Positions 2,344 to 12,418 of a stretch of DNA of 53,391 nucleotides are shown here, piece by piece. Each line of letters opens with the position of its first letter. The first letter of the stretch is position 1. The notes under the pieces were generated by a model, which was not told the origin of the DNA, ran no database searches, and saw only the letters and a program-made list of their open reading frames with translations. A program made the position numbers and the translations under genes. Location: NCBI GenBank assembly GCA_013202585.1, contig JABMPQ010000038.1, positions 1 to 53,391 on the forward strand, written 5' to 3'. The DNA is from Parcubacteria group bacterium. Its GTDB lineage: Bacteria > Patescibacteriota > JABMPQ01.

Positions 2344-3582
2344 ATGATCACAACTTCTATCATCTCACTCGTTATTCTCATCCTACTATCCTCATTTTTC
2401 TCCGGCGCGGAAATTGCGTTGTCTTCTTTGAATCCGATCAAAGTTAAAACACTCGTCAAGCAGCGTAAAAAAGGATCTAAAACCCTCGCTCGCCTGAAAG
2501 AAAAATCAGAGCGGACGATTATCACAATCTTAATTGGTAACAATATTGTAAACGTCGCTTCTGCTTCACTGGCCACTTACATTGCTACCGAAAAATTTGG
2601 TTCTAAAGGGTTGGGAATTGCCACTGGCGTAATGACTCTGATTATTTTAGTATTTGGGGAAATCACTCCCAAAACGCTAGCCACCACGCACGCCGAGCGA
2701 GTTTCCTTATTCATTGCCAGGCCGATCCTAATTCTCAGCTATATATTTTATCCGCTAATTGTTATTTTTGACGCCTTCGCTAGCCTGATCAGCCGGCTAT
2801 TCAAAACCCGTAAGCGCAAAGGGATCTCCGAGACAGAAATCAAAACAATGCTGGAATTTGGCGTTGCAGAAAAGGTAATCGATGAGGAGGAAAAAGATAT
2901 TATGCACCAAGCGATTAGGTTCAGCGACATTAAAGCGGAAACAACCATGACTCCCCTGAAAAAAGTATTCCGGTTGCCAGCGGCCACCCCAGCCAAGGAT
3001 GCTCTGGAGCCAATGCTGGACAGTGGTTTTTCGCGAGCGCCAATTTACGAAGGTCAAGATAAAAAAATCACCGGGATTGTCCTGCTCAAAGATGTTATGT
3101 ACTATATTCATGAAAAAGAAGGAGATAAGCTACTTAGTGAAATCGCTACCGACCCGATCTTTGTGCCGAGGAAAATGGAAATTGATGATGTCTTCAAAGC
3201 TTTCAAGGCCCAGCAAAAACATATTGCTCTAGTTGAGGACGAAGAAAAAGATGAAATTATTGGTTTAGTAACCATGGAGGATTTACTGGAAGAATTAATG
3301 GGTGAGATTACCGACGAGAGCGACATCACTCCTAATACTATTATTAGAATTAGTGAAAATACTATTGCCGTACATGGAGACACCTTAGTAAGTGAGATAA
3401 ATAGCTTTTTTCAGACTTCTCTGCCCATGAAGAAAAAAAGTTTGCGCTTATATGAGCTGATTAAGAATAATTTTCCGGAGTACAAGCAGGGAGCTCAACT
3501 AAAAATGGGTAATATTGTTTTTATCCTAGATAAGGTGGATGATGATAAAATAATGAAGGTGCGGATTAAAAAGAAGGGGTAA
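2344..3582 (+). CDS. CNNM/CorC-HlyC family transporter (DUF21 TM domain + CBS pair + CorC_HlyC domain)
   Basis: N-terminal motif FFSGAEIALSSLN, GEITPK, a CBS-pair region and a C-terminal transporter-associated domain. Start moved to ATG 2344 to remove the overlap with the upstream ORF. Confidence 0.88.
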   Translation: MITTSIISLVILILLSSFFSGAEIALSSLNPIKVKTLVKQRKKGSKTLARLKEKSERTIITILIGNNIVNVASASLATYIATEKFGSKGLGIATGVMTLIILVFGEITPKTLATTHAERVSLFIARPILILSYIFYPLIVIFDAFASLISRLFKTRKRKGISETEIKTMLEFGVAEKVIDEEEKDIMHQAIRFSDIKAETTMTPLKKVFRLPAATPAKDALEPMLDSGFSRAPIYEGQDKKITGIVLLKDVMYYIHEKEGDKLLSEIATDPIFVPRKMEIDDVFKAFKAQQKHIALVEDEEKDEIIGLVTMEDLLEELMGEITDESDITPNTIIRISENTIAVHGDTLVSEINSFFQTSLPMKKKSLRLYELIKNNFPEYKQGAQLKMGNIVFILDKVDDDKIMKVRIKKKG

Positions 3583-6727: not shown

Positions 6728-6844
6728 ATTAGTTGATTGACATTGCTTCCAGCATAGTATTTTGACGAATAAATTCAATACCATTGAAAAATCCGGCGGC
6801 GTATGCTAACCTCAGACTTACTGGTGACCGGTGTTGACCAACCT

Positions 6845-6916
6845 GCCCTTGTGGTGAAATGGATATCACTACTGGCTTCGGACCAGTCATTGGGGGTTCG
6901 AATCCCTCCGAGGGCA
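6845..6916 (+). tRNA. tRNA-Arg (anticodon TCG)
   Basis: Manual cloverleaf: acceptor GCCCTTG/CGAGGGC, D arm GTGA-AATGGATA-TCAC, anticodon arm ACTGG-CTTCGGA-CCAGT, T arm GGGGG-TTCGAAT-CCCTC, discriminator A. CCA is not encoded. Confidence 0.85.
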
Positions 6917-6937
6917 TAATAAATACACGAAACAAAA

Positions 6938-7002
6938 CCAGCCATTGGGGGTTCCCACCCTAACGGGTGGTCACCCGCAGGGTGAGAATCCCTCCGAGGG
7001 CA
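6938..7002 (+). pseudogene. duplicated 3' portion (positions about 39-73) of tRNA-Arg, interrupted in the T-loop by a 31-nt double-hairpin insert (6955..6985)
   Basis: ccagCcattgggggttc + [ccaccctaacgggtgg tcacccgcagggtga] + gaatccctccgagggca, versus the intact gene ccagTcattgggggttc|gaatccctccgagggca. No 5' half is present. Confidence 0.7.
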
Positions 7003-7033
7003 AATTAAAACAACATCCATGTTTACTGACAAA

Positions 7034-7192: not shown

Positions 7193-7207
7193 GTTTATTA
7201 TTGTAAT

Positions 7208-7240
7208 GAGCCCGTAGCTGTCTGCCGGCAGGCAGGGCTC
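7208..7240. repeat. GC-rich palindromic hairpin containing ctgtctgccggcaggcagg; near-identical to the palindrome inside rsmA (50808..50827)
   Basis: Core ctgcc/ggcag with extension and outer gagcc/ggctc pairing. 18 of 19 positions match 50809..50827. Confidence 0.5.
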
Positions 7241-7265
7241 AGTTGACGCTCTCCTATATTTTAGA

Positions 7266-7322
7266 GGGCCCGTAGCTCAGCTGGTAGAGCGTCCCGATGG
7301 ACATCGGGAAAGTCAGGAGTTC
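7266..7322 (+). pseudogene. orphan 5' fragment (positions 1-56) of a tRNA-Ala-like gene, ending exactly at T-loop TTC
   Basis: The acceptor 5' strand, D arm and T-stem 5' strand are identical to the downstream tRNA-Ala. The anticodon stem differs and the anticodon loop has 8 nt (ATGGACAT versus ATGGCAT). No 3' half follows; the GIY-YIG ORF does. Confidence 0.7.
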
Positions 7323-7344
7323 TGGAATACAATAAATTAATAGC

Positions 7345-7611
7345 ATGGAGGGGTTTGTTTATATTATAAGAAGTCTAAAAAGTGGTCATTTTTATGTTGG
7401 TAGCACCAAAAATGTTCAGAATAGAGTCATTGAGCACAATTTAGGAAAAACACGATCAACAAAATACCGTACGCCTTGGCAGTTAGTCTTTTACAAAAAA
7501 TACGACGACATTAACAAAGCAAAGCGGATTGAATATAAGTTGAAGAAGGCAAAAAGTAGAAAAATAATAGAGAGAATTATTCGAGACAGAGATATAAAGA
7601 TGGGCCCGTAG
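7345..7611 (+). CDS. GIY-YIG nuclease family protein (small stand-alone, UPF0213/COG2827-like)
   Basis: FVYIIRS...GHFYVGST..V..R..EHN and a downstream conserved Glu (IEYKLKK). The stop codon lies within the first 10 nt of tRNA-Ala. Confidence 0.85.
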   Translation: MEGFVYIIRSLKSGHFYVGSTKNVQNRVIEHNLGKTRSTKYRTPWQLVFYKKYDDINKAKRIEYKLKKAKSRKIIERIIRDRDIKMGP

Positions 7612-7677
7612 CTCAGCTGGTAGAGCACATCCATGGCATGGATGGGGTCAGGAGTTCGAATCTCCTCGGGTCCACCA
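7602..7677 (+). tRNA. tRNA-Ala (anticodon GGC), CCA encoded
   Basis: Manual cloverleaf: GGGCCCG/CGGGTCC acceptor with the G3:U70 Ala identity pair, anticodon arm CATCC-ATGGCAT-GGATG, T arm AGGAG-TTCGAAT-CTCCT, ACCA 3' end. Confidence 0.88.
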
Positions 7678-10844: not shown

Positions 10845-12362
10845 ATGCTAAAACAAAAACAAAATCAATTGAAGAGAATCTGTGCTTATTTAACGGCAAT
10901 TGTCCTGATTGCCTGGCCTTTTGGCTCATCTGCTGGTACTACAGCGGATAGTTTTGTTTATCCCCTAAAAAGCTATGTACTTACTTCTGATTTTGGCGAC
11001 GATCGCGGGGGCATCTACCACTTAGGTGAAGATGCCGCTGGGGCAGCTGGTACGGCCGTCTATTCTATTGGAAATGGCTACATTAAACATATTGGCGAAC
11101 ATACTAGATTTGGTACTGTTGTTCTAATTGAACATACTATCACTGGTAGAGGCAAAGTTGTTTCTCTCTATGGTCATTTACGTTCTCCCGATATAAAAGT
11201 AGCGGAAAAGCAATTTGTCAGCAAAGGACAATTAATCGGCTATTTAGGAACCACTGGGGAAAACGGTGGCTGGGGCGAACATTTACACTTTGGTATTCAC
11301 AAGGGTGCTTATGTAGATGTTGATGAGCGATGGATTTATTGGGGTCTAAACCGTTCAATCGCCGAGATGGAAAACTGGTACGATCCATCTGATTTTATTA
11401 ATGGTTACGATCCCGTTAGTTACGATCCCGATGACTTAGGTAAAATTGTTACTAGCGCTGGTTCAGGTGGCAGCGCTCACGTTAGAGTATTTGGTTCCAC
11501 TGGCCAAGCTGTTAAAGGAACGGACTTCTTCGCCTTCGGTGATGAGTCCCCAGGTGGAGCTGATATAGCTGTGGGTGATATCGACCATGATGGTGTCCAG
11601 GAGATTGTAGTCGGAGCTGGTCCGGGCAACAAACCATATGTTAAAATATTCGATAAAAATACGCAAGAGCTAGAAAAAACTTTTCTGGCTTACGGAGATG
11701 ATTTCCGGGGTGGCGTACGAGTAGCCATCGGCAATATTAACGGTGGCGAATATCAAGAAATTATTACTGGAGCTGGTCCAGGTGGGGGCGCCCAAGCTCG
11801 TGTTTTTAGTCATAATGGCAGCGTTATTCTCCCTAAGCTCTTCCCTTTTGGCGAAAATCAGCGCTCGGGGTTAGATGTGGCGGCTGGTGATACCAATGGT
11901 GATGGAATTGACGAAATTATCGTGGGTGCTGGTCCTGGCGGAGAACCAAAAGTGAGAATTTACAATGGTAATGGTCGACTAGCGAGTACCGAAATAACTG
12001 CTTTTGCCACTAACTTCCGCGGTGGAATACGCGTAGCCGCCGGTGATATTGATGGTGATGAGGTGGATGAAATTATTGTTGGGGCAGGTCAGGGCGGTGG
12101 GCCGCACGTACGTGTTTTCGAGCCTAACGGTCGACCCCGACCGATTAATATTTTCCCTTTTCACTCTAGCTTTCGGGGCGGAGTTGATGTCGCTTCCTAT
12201 GATCACAATGAAGATGGTAAAGATGATATCGTTGTTTCCCAAACCTCAGGCGGTCAAGCTTGGGTGAAAGTTGTAAAATACAATAACGAGCAGACAATCT
12301 TGGCCGAATTTAACGCTTACGCCGACTTTCAGGGTGGAGCAAATGTGACAGCGGTTAGGTAG
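10845..12362 (+). CDS. secreted M23 metallopeptidase fused to FG-GAP/VCBS-type beta-propeller repeats
   Basis: Signal peptide; M23 motifs HLGEDAA and GEHLHFGIH; about 6 repeats of the type GD.DGDG..EI(I/V)VGAGPGGGP.VR(V/I)F. Confidence 0.85.
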   Translation: MLKQKQNQLKRICAYLTAIVLIAWPFGSSAGTTADSFVYPLKSYVLTSDFGDDRGGIYHLGEDAAGAAGTAVYSIGNGYIKHIGEHTRFGTVVLIEHTITGRGKVVSLYGHLRSPDIKVAEKQFVSKGQLIGYLGTTGENGGWGEHLHFGIHKGAYVDVDERWIYWGLNRSIAEMENWYDPSDFINGYDPVSYDPDDLGKIVTSAGSGGSAHVRVFGSTGQAVKGTDFFAFGDESPGGADIAVGDIDHDGVQEIVVGAGPGNKPYVKIFDKNTQELEKTFLAYGDDFRGGVRVAIGNINGGEYQEIITGAGPGGGAQARVFSHNGSVILPKLFPFGENQRSGLDVAAGDTNGDGIDEIIVGAGPGGEPKVRIYNGNGRLASTEITAFATNFRGGIRVAAGDIDGDEVDEIIVGAGQGGGPHVRVFEPNGRPRPINIFPFHSSFRGGVDVASYDHNEDGKDDIVVSQTSGGQAWVKVVKYNNEQTILAEFNAYADFQGGANVTAVR

Positions 12363-12385
12363 ACAAAATCAGCTTCTTTATCTAT

Positions 12386-12418
12386 AAAAACTCCTGTTGT
12401 GCCAGGAGTTTTTCTTTA
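12386..12418 (+). terminator. rho-independent terminator
   Basis: Perfect 11-bp stem aaaaactcctg / caggagttttt with a 6-nt loop and a T-rich tail. Confidence 0.8.

Follow-up and report, generated by a model that had tools for sequence, protein, structure and literature searches.

Small single-domain GIY-YIG nucleases encoded next to DNA hairpins have been described as the Ssn family, in which proteins of 94 aa are specified by hairpin-flanked genes in an NTS-ssnA-NTS arrangement, and in which the nucleases bind the hairpin and cut single-stranded DNA (ssDNA) just upstream of it, with no cleavage of double-stranded DNA (dsDNA) or RNA (Chenal et al., 2025, PMC11893778). Its authors draw a parallel to RAYT/REP and IS200/IS605, and their paper is silent on tRNA and on the Candidate Phyla Radiation (CPR) (PMC11893778). 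A GIY-YIG protein that targets tRNA genes is known from phage T4, where SegB, a homing endonuclease acting on dsDNA, recognizes the T-loop motif GGTTCRANTCC within a 27-bp site (PMC2330249). The locus analyzed here lies on a 53,391-nt contig of a Parcubacteria group bacterium (GenBank assembly GCA_013202585.1, contig JABMPQ010000038.1, positions 1 to 53,391; hereafter, the window), where the gene for an 88-aa GIY-YIG protein is fused to the 5' end of an intact tRNA-Ala(GGC) gene and preceded by a partial copy of that tRNA, termed tRNA*, in which a palindrome takes the place of the anticodon arm. Literature searches returned no account of tRNA-like hairpin repeats accompanying GIY-YIG genes. 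The stretch 7266-7611 is probably, though with considerable room for doubt, one copy of a widespread Patescibacteria cassette that joins a hairpin-recognizing nuclease to tRNA homology, and that is either a selfish, homing-like element or the domesticated descendant of one.

The cassette consists of a tRNA* mimic repeat, a short spacer, and a single-domain GIY-YIG gene that is joined directly to a functional tRNA gene at the latter's 5' end. The tRNA* module (7266-7322, forward strand) copies tRNA-Ala positions 1-26 and 44-56. A first-pass annotation of the window had read it as a copy of positions 1-56, and this is borne out by two blocks of identity, 7266-7290 matching 7602-7626 of the intact tRNA-Ala at 25 of 25 positions and 7312-7322 matching 7647-7657 at 11 of 11. 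Between the two blocks, in the place of the anticodon arm of the intact tRNA-Ala(GGC), tRNA* carries TCCCGATGGACATCGGGA. The same annotation had seen an 8-nt anticodon loop with an extra A at this place; the arm does differ from that of the intact tRNA, but it is better read as an 18-nt palindrome (7292-7309, without strand; TCCCGAT-GGAC-ATCGGGA) that lies 35 nt upstream of the open reading frame (ORF) ATG, folds on both strands into a 7-bp stem with a tetraloop (-6.4 and -6.2 kcal/mol), and represents a family-wide motif with an invariant CCGA/TCGG core. The copy had also been said to stop exactly after the T-loop TTC. The TTC is present, but similarity resumes weakly to 7328 after a 2-nt insertion (TTC-tg-GAATA, against TT-GAATA in the related locus L001), which places the breakpoint at about positions 55-60 and not strictly at 56|57. 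With its 3' third missing and an arm of 7-bp stem and 4-nt loop, tRNA* does not form a complete cloverleaf. Across the whole window, ARAGORN and Rfam call only a tRNA-Arg(TCG) (6844-6917) and the tRNA-Ala(GGC), and tRNA* is not called by either program, even in a permissive Rfam scan at E ≤ 10, in line with the earlier distinction between intact gene and fragment. Three copies of the sequence GCCCGTAGCT lie in the window, where chance alone would give 0.06.

Downstream of tRNA*, an AT-rich spacer of 22 nt (7323-7344, forward strand), whose equivalents in other loci measure 5-25 nt, leads to the start codon of the GIY-YIG gene (7345-7611, forward strand; Pfam PF01541, E = 4.6e-16), the ORF that had already been recognized behind the fragment. 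The ORF ends in ATG-GGC-CCG-TAG, and its final two codons and TAG lie inside tRNA-Ala positions 2-10, the stop codon itself being U8-A9-G10 of the tRNA, as expected from the earlier placement of the stop within the 5' end of the intact gene. The intact tRNA-Ala(GGC) (7602-7677, forward strand; found by ARAGORN, 63.4 bits in Rfam) is the resident functional gene and has a G3:U70 pair. The polymorphic unit, 7266-7601, is 336 bp long, and tRNA positions 1-25 form a 25-bp direct repeat at its two borders. It contains one ORF; the neighbors of the cassette are genes for iPGM, RNase HII, and a methyltransferase, with no integrase, and a scan for promoters and terminators gave nothing beyond shuffled expectation. 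Other identities for the insert or the fragment were rejected. For an intron, whether group I or tRNA, the insert is of insufficient length and wrongly positioned, and a full tRNA follows it. A split or permuted tRNA is contradicted by the intact copy and by the lack of any 3' partner within the window, and a frameshift-suppressor tRNA with an 8-nt loop by the loss of the fragment's 3' third and by an arm that consists of a 7-bp stem and a tetraloop.

The link between gene and tRNA extends across the family. An exhaustive HMMER search recovered 5131 homologue cluster representatives at E ≤ 1e-3, mostly of 85-100 aa among the best 150. Many of the called homologues end in ...IK[MLI]G-x-stop or run on through tRNA sequence, and several start with "MDIGKV...", which is the translated arm of a tRNA* fragment. 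Genomic loci were retrieved by protein motifs alone, taken from a four-sequence alignment, and 30 of the 31 loci obtained, nearly all from Patescibacteria metagenome-assembled genomes, were analyzed. In 28 of the 30, the ORF has a tRNA gene on its own strand no more than 64 nt away. The tRNA is downstream in 22 loci, 10 of which use tRNA U8A9G10 as the stop codon, and upstream in six, where the ORF mostly ends with its TAG within the D-loop GGTTAG of a tRNA-like 3' piece. The abutting genes encode tRNA-Ala (GGC/TGC), tRNA-Pro (CGG), tRNA-Asp (GTC), tRNA-Val (GAC/CAC/TAC), tRNA-Arg (GCG), and tRNA-Ile (TAT/GAT), and a homologous hairpin arm is found in tRNA-like repeats at Ala, Pro, Asp, Val, Arg, and Ile genes, so the same design is present at tRNA genes of at least six identities, often with a second tRNA* after the tRNA. 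Local alignment of each intact tRNA against its own flanks yields a generic order of tRNA* (position 1 to about 52-60), a 5-25-nt spacer, the ORF, the intact tRNA, a short spacer, and a trailing tRNA* (positions ~17-76). The window has the leading tRNA*, spacer, ORF, and intact tRNA of this order and lacks the trailing piece; elsewhere, the hairpin stands on both sides of the ORF (L008, L009, L011, L019, L020, L027, L029, L021, and L024). The protein clades mostly follow tRNA identity. Three further homologues, P0004, P0024, and P0029, have 170-214 aa with two matched stretches, and may represent tandem GIY-YIG domains or two adjacent cassettes merged by gene calling.

Irrespective of the identity of the neighboring tRNA, all tRNA* of the family have (N)(N)CCGA(Y)(R)-N2-3-(Y)(R)TCGG(N)(N) in place of the anticodon arm. 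In a set of 27 such arms, drawn from 24 loci, the eight pairs are 99.5% complementary, four of them invariant (CCGA/TCGG) and four with compensatory changes (37 cells), a degree of pairing matched by none of 500 shuffles and falling to 25-47% in slid registers. Complementarity is retained up to the innermost pair, leaving a center of only 2-3 nt. In the 14 loci compared, tRNA* is about 97% identical to the neighboring tRNA outside the arm (98% over positions 1-26 and 96% over positions 44-55), against about 60% within it; the tRNA-derived flanks thus evolve in concert with the neighboring tRNA, and the arm does not. The tRNA* is therefore a mosaic, its flanks held identical to the neighbor, presumably by gene conversion, and its hairpin held different, presumably by selection. 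The strict form of the motif, CCGAT..ATCGG, is confined in the analyzed loci to the roughly 200 nt around the ORF, and its sole site in the 53 kb of the window is at 7294. The looser CCGAY..RTCGG pattern has chance matches outside tRNA context (222 and 39898 in the window), but tRNA* armed with it are found in most loci, and in tRNA-like context it stands exclusively beside a GIY-YIG ORF. More distant protein clades have other hairpins: one clade has both CCCGAC..GTCGGG and GCCGAC..GTCGGC, without tRNA-likeness, and a further clade at tRNA-Lys has the palindrome TCCGCC..GGCGGA. As side observations, ARAGORN calls full-length tRNA* in L012 (2335-2411; anticodon 'gaac', 8-nt loop) and in L030 (2304-2378; anticodon 'ta', 6-nt loop) as tRNA-???, both adjoining a normal tRNA and a GIY-YIG gene, and the L012 copy has an acceptor stem of its own, unlike that of the neighboring tRNA-Val; tRNA-??? 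calls in CPR assemblies may generally mark such cassettes.

The same arrangement is found on four metagenomic contigs (L001-L004) encoding P0002, a GIY-YIG protein 78% identical to that of the window. In L001 and L003 the order is tRNA-Arg, small membrane ORF, 5' fragment, GIY-YIG gene, and tRNA-Ala(GGC), and in the shorter L002 and L004 the GIY-YIG gene abuts tRNA-Ala(GGC). The ORFs of the window and L001 share 77% DNA identity at a saturated dS of about 3 and a dN/dS of 0.04; in the spacer and small ORF the two sequences are scrambled, whereas tRNA* is almost unchanged and its palindromic arm is identical at 18 of 18 positions. The ORF is under strong purifying selection, and the hairpin is likewise under purifying selection. 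A C/T difference in the D loop between the window and L001 appears in both the tRNA* and the intact tRNA of each, which suggests gene conversion between the copies. These data bear on another account of the locus, an ancient tandem duplication of tRNA-Ala followed by neutral decay of the upstream copy, in which the GIY-YIG gene between the two would be unrelated and there by chance. Such an origin would suit the presence of two tRNA-Ala-like sequences in tandem, and CPR tRNA loci are rich in fragments, but neutral decay is at odds with the same non-tRNA arm in 24 loci beside tRNAs of differing identity, with the near-identity of tRNA* to its neighbor outside the arm, with an arm left intact where spacer and synonymous sites are scrambled, and with tRNA adjacency in 28 of 30 loci. 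The comparative data effectively refute this account, to which hardly any credence can be given: the cassette is not a decayed tRNA duplicate, and the arm is a conserved palindrome and not a product of decay. An IS1595-family transposase gene (Zn_ribbon_IS1595 and DDE_Tnp_IS1595 domains) lies on the opposite strand directly downstream of the cassette tRNA-Ala in L001 (1659-2435) and L002 (441-1217), at the place taken by RNase HII in the window.

Empty sites were found through RNase HII homologues with 85, 86, and 77% identity, which led to L157, L159/L160, and L161, respectively. All share the order iPGM (reverse strand), tRNA-Arg, 57-aa ORF, tRNA-Ala(GGC), and RNase HII, with additional genes interposed in L157 and L161, and none has a GIY-YIG ORF (HMM search at E ≤ 10) or a hairpin beside its tRNA genes; loose CCGAY..RTCGG matches on these contigs lie away from tRNA genes. 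The 57-aa ORF matches that of the window at 54 of 57 residues in L157, 39 in L159, and 37 in L161, and at 20 in L001. In L159, 21 nt separate the 57-aa ORF from a single downstream tRNA-Ala whose anticodon arm is normal, and the tRNA-Ala is orthologous and single-copy in both L159 and L161. Since these syntenic relatives have neither ORF nor fragment, 7266-7601 is a present/absent unit, occupied in the window and in the distant L001 and empty in three closer relatives, and the nuclease-associated presence/absence that the first-pass annotation had postulated at tRNA-Ala is upheld. On the pattern expected of a homing endonuclease, occupied alleles (the window and L001-L004) and empty ones (L157, L159/L160, and L161) thus coexist. 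A second, independent presence/absence case is provided by arrays of tRNA-Arg, tRNA-Met, and tRNA-Lys genes, which are compact, with 8-13-nt spacers, in L039, L041, L062, L079, and L099; in L108 the array instead has a GIY-YIG gene with tRNA-Lys-derived hairpin repeats, from a subfamily of its own with the palindrome TCCGCC..GGCGGA, and L055 carries a decayed copy. A tRNA-Arg pattern scan of metagenomes for orthologous empty sites showed the pattern to be CPR-wide and returned no Arg-Ala synteny.

The empty alleles also bear on how the fragment arose. It had been proposed that a cassette of GIY-YIG gene and replacement 5' part inserted at position 56|57 of a resident tRNA-Ala and displaced its 5' part, and in the form of this proposal that draws on T4, a SegB-like homing endonuclease would cut GGTTC|GAATCC and insert the ORF with a replacement for tRNA positions 1-56, leaving the resident 5' part stranded. 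Several features speak for such a process: the 5' tRNA* breakpoints cluster at positions 52-60 and lie next to T-loop GGTT(C) in many independent loci; hairpins are inserted exactly after T-loop GTTC in tRNA remnants of the window (6954|6955), L055, L111, and L157; and SegB itself recognizes the T-loop motif (PMC2330249). A stranded resident half, however, should keep its anticodon arm, which is normal in the empty L159 and L161, and the palindromic fragment therefore cannot be the displaced half. With the palindrome common to cassettes at six tRNA identities, otherwise unrelated, the fragment is instead a cassette-borne or cassette-made module. Furthermore, the T loop of the downstream tRNA is unaltered and would still be a target, the 88-aa protein has no DNA-binding domain, and insertion at 56|57 is not required, as the 25-bp direct repeat fits recombination anywhere within it. 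Taken together, these points make a SegB-like insertion improbable. The annotation knew of no established homing site of this kind, but SegB uses the T-loop motif GGTTCRANTCC (PMC2330249), and T-loop DNA as a GIY-YIG target is hence not new.

The protein itself can be assigned with little ambiguity to the GIY-YIG superfamily on Pfam, conserved residues, and structural model. The Pfam GIY-YIG domain spans residues 3-72, and Y6, Y17, G19, R27, and E63 are invariant or nearly so across 34 homologues, Y6, Y17, R27, and E63 being the catalytic residues. The AlphaFold2 model (pLDDT 94) is one compact domain with the topology E-E-H-E-H-H that matches 1zg2 and the domains of Slx1, I-TevI, and UvrC, the last two much more weakly. 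The closest solved proteins are the UPF0213 members BH0048 (1zg2) and EF2693 (1ywl), followed by the nuclease domains of Slx1, and UPF0213 and Slx1 are best in both sequence and fold (E = 1.4e-13; Foldseek ranks 1-10). The 88 residues are a catalytic domain only, with no room for a DNA-binding domain, and this tells against the likeness to site-specific homing endonucleases implied by the earlier proposal; homing endonucleases of the I-TevI and Seg type join the catalytic domain to C-terminal DNA-binding modules at a total of about 200-250 aa, a length and architecture that are likewise not matched (TIGR01453, 25.7 bits against a cutoff of 56). NCBIfam gave nothing above cutoff for the protein, and PHROGs gave weak generic endonuclease matches only. 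PADLOC had no match at the locus, which indicates that no known defense system is involved, and a tblastn search of plasmids aimed at bona fide Ssn genes found no match.

Among described systems, the Ssn genes are closest in architecture. The 88-aa protein shares with them a size of about 90 aa and a single GIY-YIG domain, and, as in Ssn, short inverted repeats able to form tiny-looped hairpins stand beside the gene. Ssn genes have such repeats, of 20-50 nt, on both sides; the window has one on the 5' side only, and at least seven homologous loci have both. As in Ssn, the sequence type of the hairpin varies between protein subfamilies. Unlike in Ssn, the hairpins of the cassette reside within copies of the neighboring tRNA gene, where they stand in for the anticodon arm; the GIY-YIG gene runs directly into a functional tRNA gene; and the hairpin is not dispersed in the 53-kb window. 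The likeness is one of architecture, with membership in the Ssn clade (cd10448) no more than a possibility, and the nearest solved relatives are UPF0213 proteins; to our knowledge, no tRNA or hairpin association has been reported for bacterial stand-alone GIY-YIG proteins of the UPF0213/YhbQ type. SegB is free-standing, and Seg proteins are larger and multi-domain. With SegB, the cassette shares a GIY-YIG gene set among tRNA genes and presence or absence as a unit together with adjacent tRNA sequence, but SegB has no tRNA-mimic repeats, palindromic arm, or overlap between ORF and tRNA. Slx1, among the best fold matches, is a structure-specific nuclease acting on branched DNA, yet it is much larger and works with the partner Slx4. 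RAYT and IS200/IS605 elements resemble the cassette in placing a small nuclease gene between palindromic hairpins recognized as ssDNA, with solo hairpin remnants nearby, and differ in their HUH/Y1 fold, their independence of tRNA genes, and their lack of target-derived homology arms. Integrase-borne tRNA islands also create a partial tRNA duplicate and keep one intact tRNA, but they duplicate the 3' part, extend over kilobases, and carry the gene of a tyrosine or serine integrase, whereas the cassette duplicates the 5' part, measures 336 bp, and has a GIY-YIG nuclease as its only gene; an integrase att site was rejected on the absence of any integrase. The cassette is best classed as a variant of the Ssn-like or free-standing homing-nuclease theme, specialized on CPR tRNA genes.

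By analogy with Ssn, the hairpin at 7292-7309 is proposed to be the recognition element of the nuclease. The protein would bind this hairpin, most likely in an extruded or single-stranded state, and would then nick or cut nearby, in the D-loop or T-loop flanks of tRNA*. Breaks might be repaired through the tRNA-derived homology (25 bp and 11 bp here), and repair could either copy the cassette into an unoccupied tRNA gene or delete it precisely, with one intact tRNA restored in every case. The intact tRNA at the occupied site does keep normal T and anticodon arms. In two-tRNA* loci, the duplicated segment is centered on the palindrome, extending 16-23 nt on its left side and 16-22 nt on its right, which is compatible with symmetric cuts on both strands, although the boundaries are too variable to prove them; a fixed staggered cut with a 39-bp target duplication was rejected on the same variability. 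Solo tRNA* remnants are found in L111 and L113, and L055 has a degenerate, pseudogenized ORF. The remnants in L113, without a GIY-YIG ORF, lie at 12079-12215 and 12375-12410, after tRNA-Val and tRNA-Ala(TGC), and one of them has the arm TCCCGATATAATGTCGGGA and flanks nearly identical to those of the window tRNA* (TAGAGCG...AAGGTCAGGAG).

Several observations weigh against a mobile, hairpin-guided nuclease. With segment boundaries this variable, a fixed cleavage geometry is at best tentative, and the T loop of the intact tRNA is normal. The window has a single hairpin copy, no 3' tRNA*, and no dispersed copies in tRNA context in 53 kb. Presence in the window and L001 but not in three closer relatives follows as readily from repeated precise loss of an ancient cassette as from gain, and the saturated dS between the window and L001 copies means that there is no sign of recent transfer. 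The Ssn SRM consensus (HGTCWY..YYVSBRH..WNVSBRG..RNCYNB) has no match within ±400 nt of the 30 loci, and the cassette hairpin belongs to a different sequence class. Nuclease action in this protein family is, moreover, presumed from homology.

Some of the same facts are accommodated by a domesticated, RNA-level role, in which the leader would serve a transcript of tRNA*, ORF, and tRNA in cis, in its regulation or its processing, or the system would be a host-controlled modulator of recombination or transformation, as proposed for NTS/SsnA, inherited vertically and sometimes lost by deletion between repeats but not actively mobile. Hairpin and ORF are conserved across dS-saturated divergence, protein clades largely follow tRNA identity, and the 25-bp direct repeat would ease precise loss; the ORF begins 22 nt past the leader and stops within the tRNA, so that RNase P processing would interact with translation. 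An RNA hairpin, however, does not need complementarity up to the innermost pair, the solo tRNA* of L111 and L113 and the degenerate ORF of L055 are what decaying selfish elements should leave, and the occupation of many different tRNA genes, together with a second subfamily with its own palindrome, indicates repeated colonization. A purely domesticated function is accordingly regarded as rather unlikely. The preferred reading, a hairpin-recognizing nuclease cassette with tRNA homology, leaves room for a stronger version that is doubtful: a new minimal class of mobile element whose only protein is a single-domain GIY-YIG nuclease recognizing a hairpin in a mimic of its target tRNA, and which would spread by cutting hairpin or cloverleaf DNA, use the homology of the universally conserved D and T arms, colonize tRNA genes of many identities across the CPR, and leave behind the plentiful tRNA fragments and the D- or T-loop hairpin scars of these loci.

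Further tRNA fragments and hairpins surround the cassette. Directly 5' of tRNA* lies a 58-nt upstream repeat unit (7199-7265, forward strand; identified as repeat family D1 and by its fold), in which tRNA-Ala positions 1-12 (7208-7219) run into a GC-rich hairpin (approximately 7207-7241) formed by CTGTCTGCC/GGCAGGCAG; it constitutes a third, shorter tRNA 5' fragment, positions 1-12 plus GC hairpin, at 7199-7250. Two tandem units of this upstream type precede the single tRNA-Ala of L161 (800-915), and the same hairpin sequence (CTGCC-GGCAGG) also follows the T-loop GTTC in a tRNA-Phe remnant of L111 (~1255-1280). Farther upstream, a partial 3' duplicate of tRNA-Arg (positions ~39 to 76) with a hairpin insert (6937-7003, forward strand; supported by repeat and fold, z = -3.3) runs from the 3' strand of the anticodon stem to the acceptor end, 15 nt upstream of the 57-aa ORF; its 31-nt double hairpin (6955-6985; CCACCC-TAAC-GGGTGG and TCACCC-GCA-GGGTGA) stands exactly after the T-loop TTC. 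Related T-loop inserts occur in L159 (tRNA-Arg), L055 (tRNA-Arg and tRNA-Met), and L161, and are absent in L001. In L157, the closest relative, 3004-3180 holds a different tRNA-Ala(GGC) allele, whose acceptor and T stems are not those of the window. Behind it lie positions 44-76 of a window-type tRNA-Ala, a 3' remnant interrupted after the T-loop GTTC by a hairpin of 40 nt; the arrangement has the appearance of one tRNA gene having replaced another and stranded its 3' part.

If the proposed reading is correct, a family of stand-alone GIY-YIG proteins of about 90 aa, with 5131 representatives and sampled almost entirely from the CPR, would gain a candidate substrate, the CCGA/TCGG hairpin in tRNA-like DNA, together with a genomic role, and the pairing of hairpin and small nuclease put forward for Ssn would be extended to a new phylum and a new class of target. 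The cassettes would account for the tRNA fragments and the "tRNA-???" calls with 8-nt loops that confuse CPR annotation, and would present a case in which an essential tRNA gene and its selfish mimic undergo concerted evolution. Should the protein prove to be a hairpin-guided ssDNA cutter, the subfamily-specific palindromes would offer a ready panel of specificities.

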